Under the pieces are notes generated by a model that saw only the letters and a list, made by a program, of their open reading frames with translations, ran no database searches and was not told the origin of the DNA. From IMG/VR virus record IMGVR_UViG_3300042868_011386, positions 1 to 64,000 of that record: a stretch of DNA of 64,000 nt. The stretch is one strand, 5' to 3'. Shown here in pieces: positions 325 to 48,167 of the stretch; positions within the stretch are counted from its first letter, which is position 1; each line of letters starts with the position of its first letter. Position numbers and translations under genes: made by a program. Origin of the DNA: a virus.

Positions 325-1122
325 ATGGTTTTACGTGCACTGCTATTCATTACGAGCCTACTTGTAGCTGGATGTGCCGCATGGTTTTCAGTACTCGGCA
401 TTGCTACACTCTTTAGTGGCAGCTATGTTTCAGTGCTCATCATGGCGAGTGCACTTGAGATTGGCAAACTTGTAGCGACGACCTATTTGCATCACTATTG
501 GACGCATACATCAGCACTCTTAAAAGGCTATCTCGTCACAGCTACACTCATACTCATGTGTATAACTTCACTCGGTATTTTTGGTTATCTATCGTCTGCC
601 TATGCTGTAAACTCAATACAATTTTCTAACATCGACTCCCAGGTTGGGTCTCTTCAAGAACGTAAGAGCGGCATCGACTCTGAAGTCTCACAAATCAACT
701 CACGAATAGAGACACTAAACGCTGCGCGGCGCTCACAAGAAGAACGCTTGCCAAAGATGTCTGCGGCAAATGCACGACCAATCTATGCTGACATTGAAAG
801 AACAGCGGCTGAAATGCAAGCACAGCGCGAGAGAATAGTTCAACTGCAAGACAGCAAGAGAGAGCTTGACACACAAATACAAGAGCTAAAACTCAAGATG
901 TCGGCATCAAAAGACATTGGAACGTTTAAGTTTATTGCCGATCAGTTTAATCTGCCGCTCGATACAATCGTAATGGCCTTTATATGCATAATCATTGCTG
1001 TGTTTGATCCACTTGCTATTGCACTGCTGCTGTCATACAACAGCACACTTTCCAAAACACTCATGAAAGACAAGTCAGTTGATGTATCAAATCGCATCTA
1101 TGACCTGTCTGACGGTCTATAA
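325..1122 (+). CDS. Membrane protein with central coiled coil (conserved phage hypothetical)
   Basis: Three N-terminal TM segments, a coiled coil and a C-terminal TM with FDPLA; late promoter TATAAATA at 310-317. Confidence 0.7.
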   Translation: MVLRALLFITSLLVAGCAAWFSVLGIATLFSGSYVSVLIMASALEIGKLVATTYLHHYWTHTSALLKGYLVTATLILMCITSLGIFGYLSSAYAVNSIQFSNIDSQVGSLQERKSGIDSEVSQINSRIETLNAARRSQEERLPKMSAANARPIYADIERTAAEMQAQRERIVQLQDSKRELDTQIQELKLKMSASKDIGTFKFIADQFNLPLDTIVMAFICIIIAVFDPLAIALLLSYNSTLSKTLMKDKSVDVSNRIYDLSDGL

Positions 1123-1130
1123 ATCTTATT

Positions 1131-1340
1131 ATGAATCTATGTGAATTGCCATGCAATCATACTGCTATAATATGCAAAGTTCAAGGGGTCGAATGTGCTC
1201 GACTTCGTGATATGGGTTTTTGTGAAAATACACATATCACAAAAACCCGCGAAGGAAAAAATATTGTCTGCTCAACATGCGGCATACGATTAGCATTAAA
1301 TCAGGAGTTAGCTAAGGACATCATCGTTGATGAGTTATAA
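1131..1340 (+). CDS. feoA: FeoA-family protein (Cys-rich)
   Basis: RLRDMGF...G.RLAL..ELA..I.V FeoA signature; 69 aa. Confidence 0.75.
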   Translation: MNLCELPCNHTAIICKVQGVECARLRDMGFCENTHITKTREGKNIVCSTCGIRLALNQELAKDIIVDEL

Positions 1341-1352
1341 ATAAAATTTTTT

Positions 1353-1442
1353 GGGTGAATGGCAGAGCGGTTTATTGCACTTGTCTTGAAAACAAGAGTG
1401 GCTGAAAGGTCACCGTGGGTTCAAATCCTACTTCACCCGCCA
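1353..1442 (+). tRNA. tRNA-Ser(UGA)
   Basis: Cloverleaf with long variable arm, anticodon TGA and encoded CCA; TATAAATA at 1336-1343. Confidence 0.93.
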
Positions 1443-1446
1443 TTTT

Positions 1447-1536
1447 GGAACGTTGACTGAGTGGTCGAAAGTGTTTCCCTGCTAAGGAAATGTAGGGGTG
1501 ACTCTACCGTAGGTTCGAATCCTACACGTTCCGCCA
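1447..1536 (+). tRNA. tRNA-Ser(GCU)
   Basis: Cloverleaf with long variable arm, anticodon GCT and CCA. Confidence 0.93.
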
Positions 1537-1557
1537 ATGTGTATATATAATTAAAAT

Positions 1558-1632
1558 GCCCGGTTAGCTCAGTGGTAGAGCAGATCCTTTACACGGATAA
1601 GGCCGGCGGTTCGAAACCGTCACCGGGTACCA
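1558..1632 (+). tRNA. tRNA-Val(UAC)
   Basis: Cloverleaf, anticodon loop TT-TAC-AC, CCA. Confidence 0.9.
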
Positions 1633-1665
1633 CTTCTCCCCCTGAAAAACAAAATGAACTATAAT

Positions 1666-2391
1666 ATGAAAAAACAAACACAAATCGTTAAAATTGGTAT
1701 TGTAGCACTTGCTACACTTGTAAACGCATATGCTGGTACAATCGAAGACGCTCCTTCAGCAGTGGCTCCTGTCGCAGTTGAAACTGCCTATTCTTCCGAT
1801 AATGTCTGGCGTGGTGCTGATCTAGGTGCAAATGAAGCAAGCGCAATCATCTCAACTACAGCTGAACTTCCTGCGGACGTTTCGTTGGCGCTGAGCGCTG
1901 ACTATGCAAACGCTGAAACAACTGGGAAGGACGAAGCTACTGAGCTGTCTGCAATCTTTTCTAAGAGCGTTGCTGACTATCTCGTATCTTTGAGCTATAC
2001 CTGGTATTCGCAGGACTATGCGGGTCAGGAAGGACAAGCGCAAGAAGCTGGTTTGACTGTATCACGTGCAGTTGGTCCAATCGATCTTTCGCTTACTCAG
2101 TATATGAGTATTGTGGGTGATAACAATGCTTATAGCGAACTTGCTGCAACATACAGTGATGACTTTGGATCTTCATTGATGCTTGACTTTCGCGCTGAGC
2201 TTGGCTATCTCGCTCAAGAAGGACAGTGCACTCACTTTGAAACTACTGTCTCAACAGACATTCCAGTTGTCGAAGGTGTGACTGCAGTTCCGTTTGTCTC
2301 ATACTCACTTGGTCTTGATGACTCGGTTGGTGTGCACTCAGACATGAAGAATCTTTTCTTCGGTGGAATTGAGTTTAAGAAGTCATTTTAA
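1666..2391 (+). CDS. Outer-membrane beta-barrel / putative porin (TorF/TIGR02001-like)
   Basis: Signal peptide (MKKQ...AYA), alternating amphipathic strands and C-terminal Phe (GIEFKKSF). Confidence 0.7.
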   Translation: MKKQTQIVKIGIVALATLVNAYAGTIEDAPSAVAPVAVETAYSSDNVWRGADLGANEASAIISTTAELPADVSLALSADYANAETTGKDEATELSAIFSKSVADYLVSLSYTWYSQDYAGQEGQAQEAGLTVSRAVGPIDLSLTQYMSIVGDNNAYSELAATYSDDFGSSLMLDFRAELGYLAQEGQCTHFETTVSTDIPVVEGVTAVPFVSYSLGLDDSVGVHSDMKNLFFGGIEFKKSF

Positions 2392-2566: not shown

Positions 2567-3025
2567 CTAATAGTTAGTCTTGCCAAAGCTGTAGAGCATC
2601 GGATTGTCGCTTGATCCAGTGCCAGTTGTGGTGACATCCTTTTTAGCTGGAGTAAATGCATAAATCTCACGTTGAGCACGATCTGCATCAATCCATACTT
2701 CTTTATAGTTGCTGTCGCGAATGAGCAGCATTGGCGCGCCATGAATATGAGCATAGCCAACACACTCTCCACGAATGCTGTCAGAGCCAGAGTGAACTTC
2801 TAGATATTTTCCAAAGAGTGGAAACTTGTCTACTTGTCTGTTTACAGTATCGACAGCTGAACCAAGATCGTCTTTGCTTATGAGATCTTTTCCAATGTAG
2901 ATGCCTTTGCCTTTGGCACGATAGCTCGGAAAGGTTACGATGCCTTCGCTTAATTGTTCTTGAGACAACACATGTGCAGCGGCAGAAACCAATGGGTCTT
3001 CTTTGTATGATGTGAAATTATTCAT
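2567..3025 (-). CDS. Putative internal head protein with shared leader
   Basis: N-terminus MNNF..YKEDPLVSAAAHVL...LSE; late promoter at 3035-3042 (minus strand). Confidence 0.65.
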   Translation of the reverse strand: MNNFTSYKEDPLVSAAAHVLSQEQLSEGIVTFPSYRAKGKGIYIGKDLISKDDLGSAVDTVNRQVDKFPLFGKYLEVHSGSDSIRGECVGYAHIHGAPMLLIRDSNYKEVWIDADRAQREIYAFTPAKKDVTTTGTGSSDNPMLYSFGKTNY

Positions 3026-3079
3026 AATCTATCTTATTTATACTTTTCTCGAATTATGAAAATGTATAAATAGTCTTAT

Positions 3080-3649
3080 ATGCAACCCTTTGACAACTAT
3101 AAAAATGACTCTCTTGTGAGTGCTGCAGCAACGATTCTGGAGGGCAAGACTCATGACGAATGTCTTCAAGAAGCGCAGAGCGCAATTATAAAACGCCTAT
3201 TATCAGAAATTGACAATTTAAATAGAAGTCAAATGCAAGAATTTTTACTTGCATTTGCTGATCATATGGATGAGATGACAAAATATGCATCATCACGTGA
3301 TCACAAAGGCAATCCAAAAGACGTCATTAAAAAAATAAGTGATCATCTCTATGACGCAGCAAGAGCAGCAAGCGGATTAAAGACTGGTGAAAAGTATGGT
3401 TATAATGAAGGTGTAGAAGATGAAGGCGAGACACTGCAGGAATATTACACCGCTAAATTTCCACTTGCTAAAAAGGCAATGGAAGCAGTGCGCAATCTAG
3501 ATGAAGATGAAATGGAAGATTTCTTATTTGCGCTTGATAGCTTTTTCGAAGAAGGCGAAATGTCTGACTATAAAGAATCAAGCAATATTTCTGCACTAAT
3601 CTATAAAGCAGCACAAATTTGGAAAAATAGAAACGAAAGATATGCATAA
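3080..3649 (+). CDS. Putative internal head protein with two related helical modules
   Basis: Leader DSLVSAAATILEG...LQE; internal linker EGVEDEGETLQE; TATAAATA at 3065-3072. Confidence 0.65.
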   Translation: MQPFDNYKNDSLVSAAATILEGKTHDECLQEAQSAIIKRLLSEIDNLNRSQMQEFLLAFADHMDEMTKYASSRDHKGNPKDVIKKISDHLYDAARAASGLKTGEKYGYNEGVEDEGETLQEYYTAKFPLAKKAMEAVRNLDEDEMEDFLFALDSFFEEGEMSDYKESSNISALIYKAAQIWKNRNERYA

Positions 3650-4139
3650 AGACCCGCTTATAGAAGCAGCAACAAGAATCCTTCAAGGCAAGCCCGAAGA
3701 CTTACAAGAGTCTTTTATGCGTTTGCCTGGACATGTCATCAACAATGAATTATACACGCTAGGCAAATCATTTCAACAATTTGTTGATTCAATAAAACGT
3801 GGCGATGACTTTGATCCAAAGAAGATCAACTCACTTATAACTGCATTAAATTCCATAAAGTCTTCTGCAAAAACTTTTAAAGATGGAGAAAGTGTTCCTG
3901 TTTCATATCAGTATGGAAACGTAAAGGAAGCTGCTGAACAAGACGCAGGCGAATATGACGCTGAAGGCAGCATGGCTAAAAATGCACTGCGCACAATCAT
4001 TCGCAACGCAAAAGGATTGCATGACATGCTAAGCGACGATGAAAATTTACCAGAGCACGTTCAAGCAAATCTTGTAAAGGCAGAAGAGTATGTTGTCAGT
4101 GCTCGTGACTATATTGAAAGCACAAAGGAAGCAGAATAA
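3642..4139 (+). CDS. Putative internal head protein with two modules
   Basis: Leader DPLIEAATRILQG...LQE; C-terminal EGSMAK...LPEHVQ...AEEY module. Confidence 0.65.
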   Translation: MHKDPLIEAATRILQGKPEDLQESFMRLPGHVINNELYTLGKSFQQFVDSIKRGDDFDPKKINSLITALNSIKSSAKTFKDGESVPVSYQYGNVKEAAEQDAGEYDAEGSMAKNALRTIIRNAKGLHDMLSDDENLPEHVQANLVKAEEYVVSARDYIESTKEAE

Positions 4140-4148
4140 ATAAGACAT

Positions 4149-4592
4149 ATGAATAATTTTCATTACAACCAAGACCCGTTGTATGCCGCTGCAGCAAAGA
4201 TACTCAGCGGCACAACATTAACAGAAGATGCATCGCATGCATCTGCCCTTAAAGAACTTAAAGCTTCTAAGGGTGCAGAGATGTTAAAATCAAAAAACAA
4301 TCATGTATTTGGTAAAAATGGTGGATTTTCTGCAGCTCAAGAAGACGCTGACACAATTGCTATTATGATTTTCAAGCAGTCGAACAAAGGATGGATTACC
4401 AAGACCACATTCTACACAATTGAAAAAGAAGATGGTGAAAGTTATTTTAATGTCTATAGTCAAGATGTAACACACATCGCAAATCCAAAAGTGTCTGCTG
4501 AAAAGGTCTATGAGATTGCAAAGCAACACAGCGACAGCAAATACTATTTCAAAACCTTCGATCAAAAATTAGAAATTAACGAACTAAACTAA
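4149..4592 (+). CDS. Putative internal head protein
   Basis: Leader MNNFHYNQDPLYAAAAKILSG..LTE. Confidence 0.65.
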   Translation: MNNFHYNQDPLYAAAAKILSGTTLTEDASHASALKELKASKGAEMLKSKNNHVFGKNGGFSAAQEDADTIAIMIFKQSNKGWITKTTFYTIEKEDGESYFNVYSQDVTHIANPKVSAEKVYEIAKQHSDSKYYFKTFDQKLEINELN

Positions 4593-4610
4593 ATATAAAT
4601 AAATTAACAC

Positions 4611-6761
4611 ATGAATAACTTCCACTATCACCAAGACCCGATGTATGCTGCAGCTACAGCAATTCTAACTGGCAAAACTCAACTGCAAGAGTCTGATACT
4701 CTTGACGAAGCAATTGATTGGAACCTTATCCAATCAATGTATGTAAAAGACATTATTGATATTGTAGCAGCATTAGTAATTGGAGGAGGAATTGGTGTAG
4801 CTGCTATATTTGGTGGCGCAATAAAAAGATATCTTTCAGATAAAGCAGACGAAAGAGACGCAAAGGAGTCTGCACAATTCTTAAAGAGCACACTTGATAA
4901 AATCTTAAAGGACAGCAAATCAAAAGAGCTTATTTCACAAATTAAATCTTTTCCTTATTCATCAAAATCTACAGAAGAAGCTAAAAAGAATAACGAAGAG
5001 CGTAAAAAGCTAGTTAGAGCTTATAGTGCACGTCTCAAAACATTATTAAGCGATGATGAGTATGCATTGATAAATGACATCTATAACAATACCATTCGTG
5101 AAAGCGCTGATACTCTTGAAGAAGGAGTCGAAGACGTCAAGTCAATCGTCGACACCCTAAAGGTTGGCGACACTACAAACTTTGGCAAGGTGTTAGAAAT
5201 TGGGACTAACAGCATTACATTCAAGGCAAAAGATCTTCCAAAGACAACAATCGCGTTTAACCAACGCAAGATGGGCAGCTCAGAATTTTTACTTCTCAAA
5301 ACAATCAAACTAAAGGAAGAGACTGAACTTGAAGAAGAGGACGTTGCTGAAGCATACAAGCCATTACGCAAACCAGCCGACCTCATCGACGAATTACAGA
5401 GTATAGTCGACGCCCCAGATTCAAAACTTTGGGACGTCACAAGTGTGTCTATTCGTTTAAGTCATGAAGATATTTTTGATCGTTTTCCAAAGATTTATGA
5501 CTATGTTGAAGATATGTGGTTTGAAATTATGCAACCAAATGGTGCTAAAAAGACAAAAGAAATTGCTAAAAAAGCAATTGAAGCAGTGCGCAAATATTAT
5601 CCAGACCTCAACAAATCTCAGAAAAGCAATCCAGTCTATAAAGAAGATAGCATCGAAGAAGAAACAATTGATGAAGCAATCAACTGGCTTGGTGACTATC
5701 TTACTACTTCTGAAAAGAGTCAGTTTGGCGGCTATCGTCCGACTATACTTGATAAGAAAACTAAAAGAGTTATGTATCAATCTGCAGCTGCATATAATAC
5801 CCCACAAGAGGCAAAGGATCATGCTGAAGACTATCTCAAGCAAAAGGCAAAAGGCATCAGAGATCCTAAAGTTCCGGTTGTTGGTACATATAAACGTGAA
5901 AACAAAAACAAAAACCACAATGGCACTTTCGGTTTGAATCATCGTCCATCTTTCAGCGATAGCGACGACTACGGCCTGTTCGGTTGGTTGGGCGAGACTG
6001 ATGAAAAGATGGATGAAGCAGCAGATGCGGCACTCAAGCGCCGCAAGCAAGTTGATATGGCCAAAGTAAATGCTGGCGCTATGAATCGCGATGACTATAA
6101 CAAAAAGTATAAACTTGGTAAATATCGTCCAGCCGGCAGCAAATTGTCTGGTCCAGGTGGAGTCTATAAAAATCTTGTTAAGGAGGAAGAGACACTCGAA
6201 GAAGCTGTTGCAACACCAGCAGTGCAAAAGCTTATAACATCAATTGATATGCTAAGCCCTAAAGACTATCTAGTTTTCTTACAGGCACTCGCAGACAATG
6301 CACAAGGCATCGCTAATATGAGTCGTCCAGCAAATGCAAGTGGGTACTCAAATGCAAAGGCATGGGCAACAGTGGCTGATCATATTTCTGCAGCAGCTGA
6401 TGCCTATGCACAGCGTCCAATTCGTATTGAAGGCACAGAAGTCGAAGGTGAGACTCTTGAAGAAGCTGCTAACATCAAACCAGTGCAAGGAAAATATATC
6501 TTCTTTATTCAAGACCGCGAACTCTATCAACTCGACCCATATAAACTGCTTGCAAAGACTGATTTTGATCGAATCTCTAGCAGCAAACTTATGTCACACA
6601 TGAAATTAGGCAGCGAGTGGAAAGCAGTATCGGTTGCATGGGGAACAGATCTTCTTGAGATTGGTGCACTCGAATCTCCAAAAGATATATCTGATGCAGA
6701 GCAATGGTATGTCGTGCCTCATTTATATGACAAAATCACGCATCTCGCATTAGTACACTAA
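4611..6761 (+). CDS. Putative internal head polyprotein (leader plus 7 modules)
   Basis: Leader MNNFHYHQDPMYAAATAILTG..LQE; repeated acidic TLEE/TLDE/TIDE linkers; TATAAATA at 4594-4601. Confidence 0.7.
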   Translation: MNNFHYHQDPMYAAATAILTGKTQLQESDTLDEAIDWNLIQSMYVKDIIDIVAALVIGGGIGVAAIFGGAIKRYLSDKADERDAKESAQFLKSTLDKILKDSKSKELISQIKSFPYSSKSTEEAKKNNEERKKLVRAYSARLKTLLSDDEYALINDIYNNTIRESADTLEEGVEDVKSIVDTLKVGDTTNFGKVLEIGTNSITFKAKDLPKTTIAFNQRKMGSSEFLLLKTIKLKEETELEEEDVAEAYKPLRKPADLIDELQSIVDAPDSKLWDVTSVSIRLSHEDIFDRFPKIYDYVEDMWFEIMQPNGAKKTKEIAKKAIEAVRKYYPDLNKSQKSNPVYKEDSIEEETIDEAINWLGDYLTTSEKSQFGGYRPTILDKKTKRVMYQSAAAYNTPQEAKDHAEDYLKQKAKGIRDPKVPVVGTYKRENKNKNHNGTFGLNHRPSFSDSDDYGLFGWLGETDEKMDEAADAALKRRKQVDMAKVNAGAMNRDDYNKKYKLGKYRPAGSKLSGPGGVYKNLVKEEETLEEAVATPAVQKLITSIDMLSPKDYLVFLQALADNAQGIANMSRPANASGYSNAKAWATVADHISAAADAYAQRPIRIEGTEVEGETLEEAANIKPVQGKYIFFIQDRELYQLDPYKLLAKTDFDRISSSKLMSHMKLGSEWKAVSVAWGTDLLEIGALESPKDISDAEQWYVVPHLYDKITHLALVH

Positions 6762-9685: not shown

Positions 9686-10012
9686 GGGTGTGACATGGTT
9701 TCGACATGACTGTTGAAGCAATATATGCAATGTACAGTCTGCACGACTCTAAGTGCAAGAGAAAAACGAAAAAGATACACTAGCTCTCGCGGCATAACCG
9801 CACCAATGCATCGACTCCGATGCAGTGTGTTGGCATAGAGGAGGATCGGATAGTTGTATATCGAAAATATAATAGACTCATCGATTCGAATATTGATGCG
9901 GGATTGCTCGACAACAATCTAGGTTGTGATTGTCCTAACATCAATCAATAAATTGTAGAAGTATATTGTCGAGAAGTCATGGACTGGAGTTCGATCCTCC
10001 ACACATCCACCA
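9686..10012 (+). ncRNA. ssrA: tmRNA
   Basis: Acceptor GGGTGTG/CACATCC-ACCA with G3-U pair; GGTTTCGAC; PK1 (AGTC-TGCAC-GACT-GTGCA); tag frame ending DTLALAA*; T arm GGAGTTCGATCCTCC. Confidence 0.92.
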
Positions 10013-10972: not shown

Positions 10973-11081
10973 AGGTCATTTTCTCTATACGGGGCTTAAC
11001 TTCGGGACCTTTTTTCACTTTTTAAAAAAAGTTGTGTACTTTTGTCGTGGTTTATGCTATAATAACCATGTAAGCAACAAT
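10973..11081 (+). repeat. Early-promoter cassette, copy 1
   Basis: AGGTCATTTT..CCTTTTTTCACTTTT..AAAAAAGTTGTGTACTTTT..TGCTATAAT..ATGTAAGCAACAA. Confidence 0.85.
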
Positions 11082-13968: not shown

Positions 13969-14076
13969 GGTCATTTTTCTAAGCCCGGGCTACGTCCGGG
14001 ACCTTTTTTCACTTTTATGAAAAAAGTTGTGTACTTTTGCCGCGGTTTATGCTATAATAACCATGTAAGCAACAAA
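13968..14076 (+). repeat. Early-promoter cassette, copy 2
   Basis: Near-identical to copy 1. Confidence 0.85.
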
Positions 14077-18601: not shown

Positions 18602-18712
18602 GACAAGCATAAATAAGGACCTATCCAAACTATGCCCGAAGGTTCCGGAACGGATAAATAGTGTTGAGTTAATGCCAGATTAGACATTTTTCTTATTTTG
18701 TCGAGAATTTTA

Positions 18713-18781
18713 TGCACTTTTGTGAAAAAGGTTGTGTACAAATCGTGAGTTTTGTGGTATAATAGTCATGTAAGCAACAAT
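18713..18781 (+). repeat. Early-promoter cassette, copy 3 (diverged, core only)
   Basis: CACTTTTGTGAAAAAGGTTGTGTAC..TGGTATAAT..ATGTAAGCAACAAT. Confidence 0.8.
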
Positions 18782-20669: not shown

Positions 20670-20780
20670 GAGGTCATTTTCTCTATACGGGGTCACCGTC
20701 CGGGGCCTTTTTTCACTTTTATGAAAAAAGTTGTGTACTTTTGTCGCGGTTTATGCTATAATGACCATGTAAGCAACAAT
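20670..20780 (+). repeat. Early-promoter cassette, copy 4
   Basis: Near-identical to copies 1 and 2. Confidence 0.85.
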
Positions 20781-22659: not shown

Positions 22660-22691
22660 AATTTGACCCTGGAGGTTGAAAAAAAGTGAAG

Positions 22692-22764
22692 TTTTTTCAC
22701 TTTTATGAAAAAAGTTGTGTACTTTTTGCGGGTTTTAGTGTATAATAATCCTGTAAGCAACAAT
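22692..22764 (+). repeat. Early-promoter cassette, copy 5 (core only)
   Basis: TTTTTTCACTTTTATGAAAAAAGTTGTGTACTTTT..TATAAT..GTAAGCAACAAT. Confidence 0.85.
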
Positions 22765-32927: not shown

Positions 32928-32947
32928 ATATCTATTTATAGCATTTT

Positions 32948-33403
32948 TTACGTCAATAATTTTATGCCAAGCGCCTTTATTGTATCTTCAGTCCACACTT
33001 CAAAAATCCATCCTCGATCAGCGCAATATTCTCGTGCAGCTTCCCACTTTGATATATTTTTTGCATAGGTGAGTACCTCTGTAATGTATGCCTTTGTTTT
33101 TTTAGACCGCACAGCTGGTTCCTGTGTTTGTTTTTTAGGTTTTATTTCAATAAGATAAGTAGTTCCAGTCTTAAATGTTACTTTTAAGTCTACAAAATAT
33201 CTATGACTTTTTCCGTCTGAGCGGCATCGGTATGGCACAACTGTTTCTTCACTGCTCCAAGAAACTACGGCTGGATTTTCATCGCACCACTTAAAAACTT
33301 GACGCTCCCATAGCGATCGATATACGACTCCAGAAGCGTCTCCATCATATTTTTCTTTGTGCGCTATGCGATATTTACCACTATAATAATGTTTTTTCGC
33401 CAT
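32948..33403 (-). CDS. gp4: Head completion protein gp4
   Basis: KY.GD...YRSLWE, WSSEE, HRYFVD, EIKP and KWEAA motifs. Confidence 0.92.
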   Translation of the reverse strand: MAKKHYYSGKYRIAHKEKYDGDASGVVYRSLWERQVFKWCDENPAVVSWSSEETVVPYRCRSDGKSHRYFVDLKVTFKTGTTYLIEIKPKKQTQEPAVRSKKTKAYITEVLTYAKNISKWEAAREYCADRGWIFEVWTEDTIKALGIKLLT

Positions 33404-33415
33404 ATAAATACTTAT

Positions 33416-42238: not shown

Positions 42239-42267
42239 CTCGTCGACTATATTTGTATAAATAGAAT

Positions 42268-47122: not shown

Positions 47123-47216
47123 AGATACCAACATACTCAATAACATCAAACACAAATAGTTAATAGCGGTGAAAGTGTCTCACACACCTATTCATAAGAT
47201 AATATAAATATAGTAT

Positions 47217-48143: not shown

Positions 48144-48167
48144 TGTGTGTCGTATAAATAATAGCAT

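Follow-up and report, generated by a model that had tools for sequence, protein, structure and literature searches.

The capsid-targeting sequence (CTS) of phage T4 and the internal proteins that carry it are the classic case of a phage injecting anti-defense proteins together with its DNA, and they form the basis of T4 protein-delivery vectors. To our knowledge, evidence for the packaging-leader principle has so far come chiefly from T-even coliphages and, in a form with long propeptides, from jumbo phages. Here, we analyzed a 64,000-nucleotide (nt) stretch of viral DNA (positions 1 to 64,000 of IMG/VR record IMGVR_UViG_3300042868_011386; hereafter, the window) in which five clustered genes encode proteins with a common N-terminal leader. 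Judging from the sequences compared below, this shared N terminus is quite probably a capsid-targeting propeptide, the functional counterpart of the T4 internal-protein CTS. A sequence-only reading of the window had proposed a portable packaging tag that is removed at an xxE site and is common to a family of head cargo, and this proposal withstood all the computational tests run.

In T4, gp21 cuts after Glu in the motif L/I-x-E, and the internal-protein propeptides, which are 10 to 19 residues long, target the core; in IPIII, the targeting determinants are located at residues 4 and 7 (PMC9026906). IPI, IPII, and IPIII are injected inhibitors of GmrSD-type restriction enzymes (PMC9026906, PMC12373910), while Alt is a head-packaged, injected ADP-ribosyltransferase processed by gp21 (PMC9026906). 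The ip loci of T-even phages are polymorphic according to Mullaney and Black (1996) and Repoila et al. (1994), as these works are cited in PMC9026906 and PMC12373910. The leaders read from the T4 record are MKTYQEFIAE (IPII and IPIII) and MKTFKEF...ITE (IPI).

The locus in the window resembles the T4 system in that a common N-terminal leader stands on otherwise unrelated proteins and ends in the gp21 motif (L/I)-x-E, as read from the sequence. Four of the five genes are preceded, at 6 to 9 nt, by putative late promoter boxes. As in the case of T4 ipI, the genes form a hypervariable locus adjoining transfer RNA (tRNA) genes (here, the tRNA cluster at 1353-1632). The gp21 and gp22 genes are present in the lineage, as established through a close relative, G001. 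The beginning of the leader, M-[KN]-x-[FY] with an aromatic residue at position 6 or 7, can be compared to MKTYQEF; the likeness is faint, and homology is not demonstrable. The differences are as follows. The leader is 23 to 31 amino acids (aa) long and contains an Ala-rich helix, whereas T4 leaders have 10 to 19 aa and no helix. The cargo is acidic to neutral [isoelectric points (pI) of 4.8 to 8.0 and masses of 13.7 to 77 kDa for the putative mature parts of the five proteins], in contrast to the small basic DNA-associated proteins of T4. It often consists of multimodule polyproteins reaching 834 aa, where T4 has a single small protein, and its modules also occur in the scaffold protein gp22. 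Last, the phage is a distant freshwater relative of HTVC008M and Melnitz, isolates classified in Kyanoviridae.

Cargo-loading peptides of encapsulins also load proteins into an HK97-fold shell by means of a short portable tag or covalent fusion, but they are C-terminal, bind the shell protein, stay uncleaved, and have no sequence relation to the leader. The giant phages phiKZ, 201phi2-1, and SPN3US are similar to the locus in having long propeptides with several protease sites, all cut after Glu; SPN3US gp53 and gp54 are paralogs with conserved N termini and diverged bodies, and the propeptide in the giant phages has been inferred to be a targeting signal (PMC5694885, PMC9026906). In the giant phages, however, the motifs are A/S/G-x-E, the propeptides exceed 100 aa, no gp22 scaffold is recognized, and the phages are jumbo phages with a virion RNA polymerase, whereas here P3 is L, V, I, or M (as defined), the leader has ~26 aa, and the genome, of ~174 kb, has a core of T4 type. 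Neither polyproteins of the bead-on-string kind nor cargo fused to the scaffold are described for the giant phages. Mobile regulatory cassettes of T4-type genomes, the promoter early stem-loops (PeSLs), likewise use short conserved gene-border sequences as recombination joints in hyperplastic regions (PMC2839356, PMC4122927); in the window, the apparent joints lie inside coding sequence, in the leader and the linkers, and are conserved as protein.

Five clustered genes begin with the same leader

The genes and the promoter boxes that precede them are given below (arrows in motifs mark candidate cuts); open reading frames (ORFs) are referred to by the coordinate of their ATG.

2567..3025, minus strand: leader protein 1, 152 aa; leader at residues 1 to 27 (nt 2945-3025), ending LSE↓G; putative mature cargo of 125 aa, pI 8.0
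3080..3649, plus strand: leader protein 2, 189 aa; leader at residues 1 to 31 (nt 3080-3172) with ILE↓G and CLQE↓A, then two copies of a helical module with the linker GETLQE↓Y
3642..4139, plus strand: leader protein 3, 165 aa; shortened leader at residues 1 to 23 (nt 3642-3710), ending DLQE↓S
4149..4592, plus strand: leader protein 4, 147 aa; leader at residues 1 to 26 (nt 4149-4226), ending TLTE↓D
4611..6761, plus strand: leader protein 5, 716 aa, a putative polyprotein; leader at residues 1 to 27 (nt 4611-4691), ending LQE↓S, then seven modules
3035..3042, minus strand: box TATAAATA of the T4 late promoter type, 9 nt upstream of the ATG at 3025; one member of a divergent promoter pair
3065..3072, plus strand: box TATAAATA of the T4 late promoter type, 7 nt upstream of the ATG at 3080
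4135..4142, plus strand: box AATAAATA, close to the late promoter consensus, 6 nt upstream of the ATG at 4149
4594..4601, plus strand: box TATAAATA of the T4 late promoter type, 9 nt upstream of the ATG at 4611

As judged by sequence inspection, all five ORFs are present where the sequence-only reading had placed them, and each opens with the motif described there. Their N-terminal starts, as listed, are MNNFTSYKEDPLVSAAAHVLSQEQLSE, MQPFDNYKNDSLVSAAATILEGKTHDECLQE, MHKDPLIEAATRILQGKPEDLQE, MNNFHYNQDPLYAAAAKILSGTTLTE, and MNNFHYHQDPMYAAATAILTGKTQLQE, with the consensus M..F.Y..D[PS][LM]..AA..[IV]L....[LV]xE. The pattern D[PS][LM]..AA..[IV]L has exactly five matches in the six frames of the 89,457–base pair (bp) contig that includes the window, and each match is the N terminus of one of these ORFs. 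A six-frame scan of the contig with a hidden Markov model (HMM) of the five leaders, which had been suggested together with the initial proposal, gave E values of 1e-11 to 5e-19 for the members; they alone scored, the next best segment having an E value of 2.6. The leader had also been described as amphipathic. This description does not hold well, since the hydrophobic moment is 0.24 to 0.40 in four of the leaders and 0.65 in the 3642 leader only. The leader is better called a short Ala-rich helix, which AlphaFold2 (AF2) predicts at residues 10 to 19.

The promoter boxes are as had been claimed: a perfect TATAAATA is located 7 to 9 nt upstream of three genes and AATAAATA upstream of 4149. There are 16 copies of TATAAATA in the window versus 7.7 expected (none of 100 shuffles reached 16), and many of them are found 4 to 9 nt before the ATG of virion genes. 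Given this enrichment and position, TATAAATA is probably the T4-type late promoter of the phage. Copies elsewhere in the window are located at 310-317, 32933-32940 (minus strand), 33403-33410, 42256-42263, 47203-47210, and 48153-48160, among others. With the box only 4 to 9 nt from the ATG, a transcription start slightly downstream of it, as in T4, would leave these mRNAs with little or no leader; alternatively, the box may double as an AT-rich translation signal. The 3642 ORF lacks a promoter box of its own; it shares its first 8 nt with the end of the 3080 ORF, so that the two may be translationally coupled.

The leader family is conserved as protein and recombines as a unit

Among 1.84 billion cluster representatives, a profile built from 12 leaders had 72 matches at E ≤ 1e-3, of which 69 were accepted; P0009, P0078, and P0079, which are low-complexity repeat proteins, were dropped as false. 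The leader begins at residue 1 in all 69 accepted clusters, whose proteins are 67 to 834 aa long. Phe is near-invariant at leader position 4, and Tyr is found at position 6 or 7. An [LIVM]xE motif ends at residue 26 or 27 in 38 of these clusters, and the other clusters have an [LIVM]xE site within residues 20 to 36 when the ILE of the core motif is counted. The consensus of the candidate cut site is G-Q-T-[LV]-[TS]-E↓[EDAS], with L, V, I, or M at P3, although the site definition itself demanded one of these four. The window leaders end in LSE, LQE, LQE, LTE, and LQE at residues 23 to 31.

When the leaders of the window genes were compared in pairs, 5 to 12 of the 8 to 18 identical residues per pair (approximately half) were found to use different synonymous codons, and the mean column identity of the leader DNA alignment is 61%. 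Selection therefore acts on the peptide. As can be seen from relatives, leader and cargo are also joined in different combinations. In L008, the shortened 3642-type leader is joined to 3080-type cargo at ...SLQE↓AQS. L012 and P0074 have a full leader on 3642-type cargo, with the junction ...E↓SFGRLPG at the residue where the window has it. In the large protein of L002, GVEDVKSI comes immediately after the leader, whereas in the window this sequence follows the internal DTLEE↓ at residue 171. These residue-exact junctions indicate that leader and cargo recombine as separate units, with the seam at the residue after Glu.

Fourteen related loci (L001 to L014) were found in IMG/VR. The leader locus is hypervariable among close relatives, which differ by leader swaps, gene replacement, and insertions or deletions of modules. 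The 4149 protein is 93 to 99% identical in L001 to L011, whereas L012 to L014 match the window's 4149 protein over the leader alone. A weaker sixth leader gene is present in relatives ~6 kb upstream of the cluster. It encodes 141 aa beginning with MNAFNS..D[SP]LVEAAKQILE↓KVAIAP and is located at ~883-1807 (plus strand) in L001, L004, L006, L007, L009 to L011, and L013 and at G002:C1:134367-134429; its expected position in the window's contig is beyond the 5′ end.

The leader genes belong to a T4-like lake myovirus

The window's contig represents approximately half of the genome of an uncultured freshwater T4-like lake myovirus (completeness of 53%). The assignment follows from PHROG matches on the contig to gp32, a baseplate hub protein, a gp48-type protein, gp2, gp4, a wedge protein (gp53-like), a gp5-like lysozyme/tail protein, and gp6. 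DNA of this phage type is contained in lake-water metagenomes of more than 20 studies. The relative G001, a 173,760-bp contig that is 97% complete, has the same five-gene leader cluster, in which the 4149 protein shares 97% identity with that of the window. G001 also contains a head module on a single strand: the gp20 portal, a 56-aa ORF, gp21 (Peptidase_S77, PF03420, 148 bits), the gp22 scaffold (511 aa; L017 6715-8250, minus strand), and gp23 (PF07068, 470 bits). The end of the gp23 propeptide, AYLAE↓GNS, is of the T4 site type. Between gp20 and gp21, where T4 has gp67 and gp68, G001 has merely the 56-aa ORF. The G001 capsid protein is closest to that of Pelagibacter phage HTVC008M (57.6%), followed by Methylophilales phage Melnitz (56.6%).

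Cargo modules are shared with the gp22 scaffold

Homologs of gp22 at E ≤ 1e-5 number 5,466, and 120 of them (P0080 to P0199) were included in the module comparison. Members of the gp22 family (PF25623; 287 to 724 aa among the proteins listed) have a conserved C-terminal half and a variable N-terminal half. At least one cargo module of the leader family was found in 83 of the 120 homologs, within the variable half, and several different kinds of modules are represented. The N-terminal half of gp22 is composed of shuffled modules between E↓A-type sites, some of them duplicated in tandem. Residues 82 to 144 of G001 gp22 are 63% identical to residues 363 to 425 of the leader protein P0031 (E value of 9e-21). 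The first module of the 716-aa window protein is 87% identical, over all of its 138 aa, to residues 125 to 262 of the gp22 homolog P0098, where it is bounded by EMTE↓A at the start and ETQEE↓V at the end. This module is present in nine gp22 homologs, one of which has two tandem copies.

The leader itself was not found in any of the 120 gp22 homologs by HMM search (best E value of 0.16). A BLAST alignment that begins at residue 9 of P0013 had seemed to place a leader within gp22 homologs; inspection and the HMM revealed the module only. Since gp22 carries the modules without the leader, the same modules would reach the prohead core either as scaffold inserts or on separate leader proteins. Most simply, the leader would stand in for a covalent link to the scaffold and would thus mediate association with the core.

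Leader proteins are strings of modules on acidic linkers

The bodies of the leader proteins consist of modules strung on acidic ..[LIM]xE↓[AG] linkers. According to the sequence-only reading, the proteins diverge completely after the leader; this was overstated: one helical module recurs in the 3080 and 4611 proteins. It is found three times in these two window genes, at residues 32 to 121 and 122 to 189 of the 3080 protein and at residues 532 to 618 of the 4611 protein. Two modules of the putative polyprotein are located as follows.

4710..5123, plus strand: module 1, residues 34 to 171, with a hydrophobic Gly-rich helix; also inserted in gp22 scaffold homologs
6204..6464, plus strand: module 6, residues 532 to 618, helical; related to both 3080 modules (30% identity over 87 aa; E value of 3e-6 in a small database); predicted local distance difference test (pLDDT) score of 73 to 87

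Candidate sites in the 716-aa protein are SDTLDE↓A, ADTLEE↓G, ETELEE↓E, EETIDE↓A, EKMDE↓A, EETLEE↓A, and GETLEE↓A, with candidate cuts after residues 33, 171, 242, 355, 469, 531, and 618. In the AF2 model of this protein, modules are predicted with pLDDT of 70 to 91. Between the modules, values are below 50 at residues 21 to 45, 236 to 251, 335 to 351, 429 to 472, 503 to 534, and 605 to 685, each of which contains a candidate site; at the seventh site (residues 169 to 171), pLDDT dips to 54. The pattern [ED][ET][LIM]xE[AGSY] occurs 6 times in the 1,369 aa of the cluster versus twice in the contig's remaining 26,650 aa, and 5 times in the 716-aa protein versus 0.06 expected from shuffles; these enrichments are overstated because the linker pattern was defined post hoc, and our motif statistics generally rest on patterns partly derived from the data.

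Orthologs from five close relatives differ by insertions and deletions of whole modules, framed by duplicated linkers (DEKMDE...DEKMDE and TEVQGETLEE...TEVEGETLEE). Among the 69 leader proteins, 46% of distinct BLAST block starts are within 3 residues of [LIVM]xE, compared to 17% at random (maximum of 20.5% in 200 trials), and 78% are within 8 residues, compared to 33% at random. The L002 ortholog and contigs from two RNA libraries lack module 1. The large gene also varies in lake DNA and RNA library contigs of other samples that match window positions 4654-5121 and 5327-5348: one skips module 1, and at the ETEL linker others have an insert of 197 or 449 nt. Variation at the level of modules is therefore seen among contigs of several lake samples. 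RNA-library contigs (three libraries, two studies) cover parts of the cluster; since this is no proof of transcription, they were left out as evidence.

One relative carries an ADP-ribosyltransferase–like module

Residues 345 to 512 of the leader protein P0022 (512 aa) are similar to Mod/Alt-type ADP-ribosyltransferases (feature score of 0.96, with 177 features shared), and the template modeling (TM) score of this C-terminal module to a ModB cluster is 0.78. The module has no Pfam match and no sequence match in PDB. P0022 thus resembles T4 Alt, a head-carried effector enzyme released by gp21 cuts, but the ADP-ribosyltransferase–like module is absent from the window and is the last bead of a 512-aa multimodule protein. 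A Pfam search with ten polyproteins of the family returned only DUF5856 (at the end of P0066) and subthreshold noise. By analogy with the injected proteins of T4, the cargo modules are likely to be early effectors.

How the leader may act

A shared tag that ends in a protease motif, together with a building block that is also fused into the scaffold, makes it most likely that these proteins are loaded into the capsid and delivered with DNA. We infer the following course of events, from core binding through cleavage and head retention to ejection and function. The five genes would be transcribed late from the T4-type TATAAATA promoters. Their products would join the gp22-based prohead core through the leader, using the aromatic residues at positions 4 and 6/7 followed by the Ala-rich helix D-P-L-x-x-A-A-x-x-I-L. 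Once activated, the gp21-type prohead protease would cut after Glu of [LIVM]-x-E, at approximately residue 26, to free the leader, and would also cut the acidic linkers, converting the larger proteins to free modules of 55 to 140 aa. The modules would remain in the head and presumably be ejected with the DNA as early effectors. The linkers would double as recombination joints, so that the locus becomes a shuffled library of cargo modules.

A broader version of this model, to which we give roughly even chances, is a two-route, plug-and-play system of capsid cargo. One pool of small folded modules would be used either as cleavable N-terminal inserts of gp22 or as leader-borne strings, with the [LIM]xE linkers acting both as protease sites and as recombination joints, and close relatives would carry different injected effectors, such as ADP-ribosyltransferase–like and membrane-helix modules. 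We know of no description of polyprotein internal proteins or scaffold-fused cargo in T4-like phages.

Several observations weigh against assigning the leader a CTS role. [LIVM]xE is a short motif, and the proteins are rich in Glu and Leu. Head genes were not found on the window's own contig, which is 53% complete, and are known from the close relative G001. The leader profile has no match in T4 (E ≤ 1), HTVC008M, or Melnitz, while all copies were recovered in the controls G000 and G001 (5 + 5); homology to the T4 CTS is not detectable. The leader of the 3642 protein is shortened and lacks the M..F.Y part, whereas orthologous cargo in relatives bears a full leader; either the helix suffices, or the 3642 member is loaded poorly. 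In addition, Pfam, PHROG, ESM Atlas, and Foldseek revealed no family or fold for the window cargo: the five leader proteins have no Pfam or PHROG match; a Foldseek search of PDB with the AF2 model of the 716-aa protein gave nothing below an E value of 0.09 (weak MscS-like rows only); ESM Atlas gave nothing above 0.78 for the 152-aa protein, whose AF2 model (pLDDT of 42.7) was too poor for a fold search.

The sequence-only reading had called the leader novel. This is correct for the sequence, for which Pfam, PHROG, T4, HTVC008M, and Melnitz offer no match, but not for the principle, which is that of the T4 CTS (PMC9026906, PMC3012670). The cluster had no match by megablast and tblastn in 50,697 phage records, and our literature search found no account of CTS-like leaders in Kyanoviridae or pelagiphage-like phages.

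The alternative that fares best, which we consider unlikely, is that the leader proteins are auxiliary scaffold or core proteins like T4 gp67 and gp68, fragmented and mostly expelled before DNA packaging; the leader would then be a core-assembly tag, and the modules would not be delivered effectors. In its favor, the leader proteins share modules with the gp22 scaffold itself, are acidic, and have many cleavage-type sites each, like T4 gp22, gp67, and gp68, each of which yields several fragments when cut (PMC9026906); moreover, G001 has just the 56-aa ORF in place of gp67 and gp68. However, the hypervariable content of genes and modules between near-identical phages is more in keeping with cargo of an accessory or arms-race nature than with structural parts, each module is predicted to fold as a domain of its own, and the ADP-ribosyltransferase–like module of one relative is of an effector type.

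It is less probable still that the leader has nothing to do with the capsid and serves as a docking helix, a membrane-association or export signal, or an oligomerization tag of a paralogous family. Although the leader itself has no direct link to a head protein and no profile similarity to the T4 CTS, and one module contains a hydrophobic helix, the cargo modules sit in gp22 scaffold homologs that are themselves leaderless, and neither a fixed-distance [LIVM]xE nor exact junctions after Glu are expected for a retained domain. A secretion signal was considered separately and rejected: the leader has no basic n-region and no long hydrophobic core and is not of the Sec, Tat, or lipoprotein type.

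That conservation acts on DNA or RNA, through a mobile promoter-proximal cassette or a translation-initiation element encoding a functionless peptide, is hardly credible: conserved cassettes of promoter and terminator do serve T4-like phages for gene shuffling (PMC2839356, PMC4122927), late promoters immediately precede the leaders, and a 102-nt repeat family of such kind is present elsewhere in the window, but the explanation is largely refuted by the synonymous-codon pattern, and the 61% identity per DNA column and the retention of the motif at the protein level across 69 diverged clusters also stand against it.

If the leader is indeed a capsid-targeting propeptide, the CTS principle extends, with a different and longer tag, to an abundant clade of uncultured lake myoviruses akin to pelagiphage HTVC008M. 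Two features appear to be undescribed: cargo polyproteins that a protease could cut and the exchange of cargo modules with the scaffold. For uncultured phages, the proteins that are probably injected may then be listed from sequence alone, either by a leader search or from the N-terminal half of gp22, and the at least 69 clusters with dozens of modules constitute a candidate set for anti-defense and host-takeover functions. By plausible extrapolation from T4, the leader and a linker may suffice for a foreign protein to be loaded into, and released within, the capsid of a T4-like phage other than a coliphage.

Other features of the window

A 102-nt direct repeat is present in five copies with 63 to 100% identity (10979-11080, 13974-14075, 18679-18780, 20678-20779, and 22662-22763). 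It lies between genes of the early/replication region, yields spurious ORF starts reading MKKVVYFCRGLCYNN, and may be a promoter/stem-loop cassette like T4-type PeSLs (PMC2839356). A transfer-messenger RNA is encoded at 9686-10012 on the plus strand (Rfam RF00023, 83.8 bits), and its tag peptide is predicted by ARAGORN. Just upstream of the tRNA cluster, a group I intron–like match is located at 44-247 on the plus strand (RF00028); its score of 42.3 bits is under the gathering score of 50.

Three plus-strand ORFs are located near the tRNA genes and the leader cluster and were described by sequence inspection. The ORF at 325-1122, which has a copy of TATAAATA 7 nt upstream, encodes 265 aa with hydrophobic N- and C-terminal segments and a coiled coil–like middle part. 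The product of the ORF at 1131-1340 is a Cys-rich protein of 69 aa. The ORF at 1654-2391 encodes 245 aa with a signal peptide–like start, and its product looks like an outer-membrane beta-barrel.

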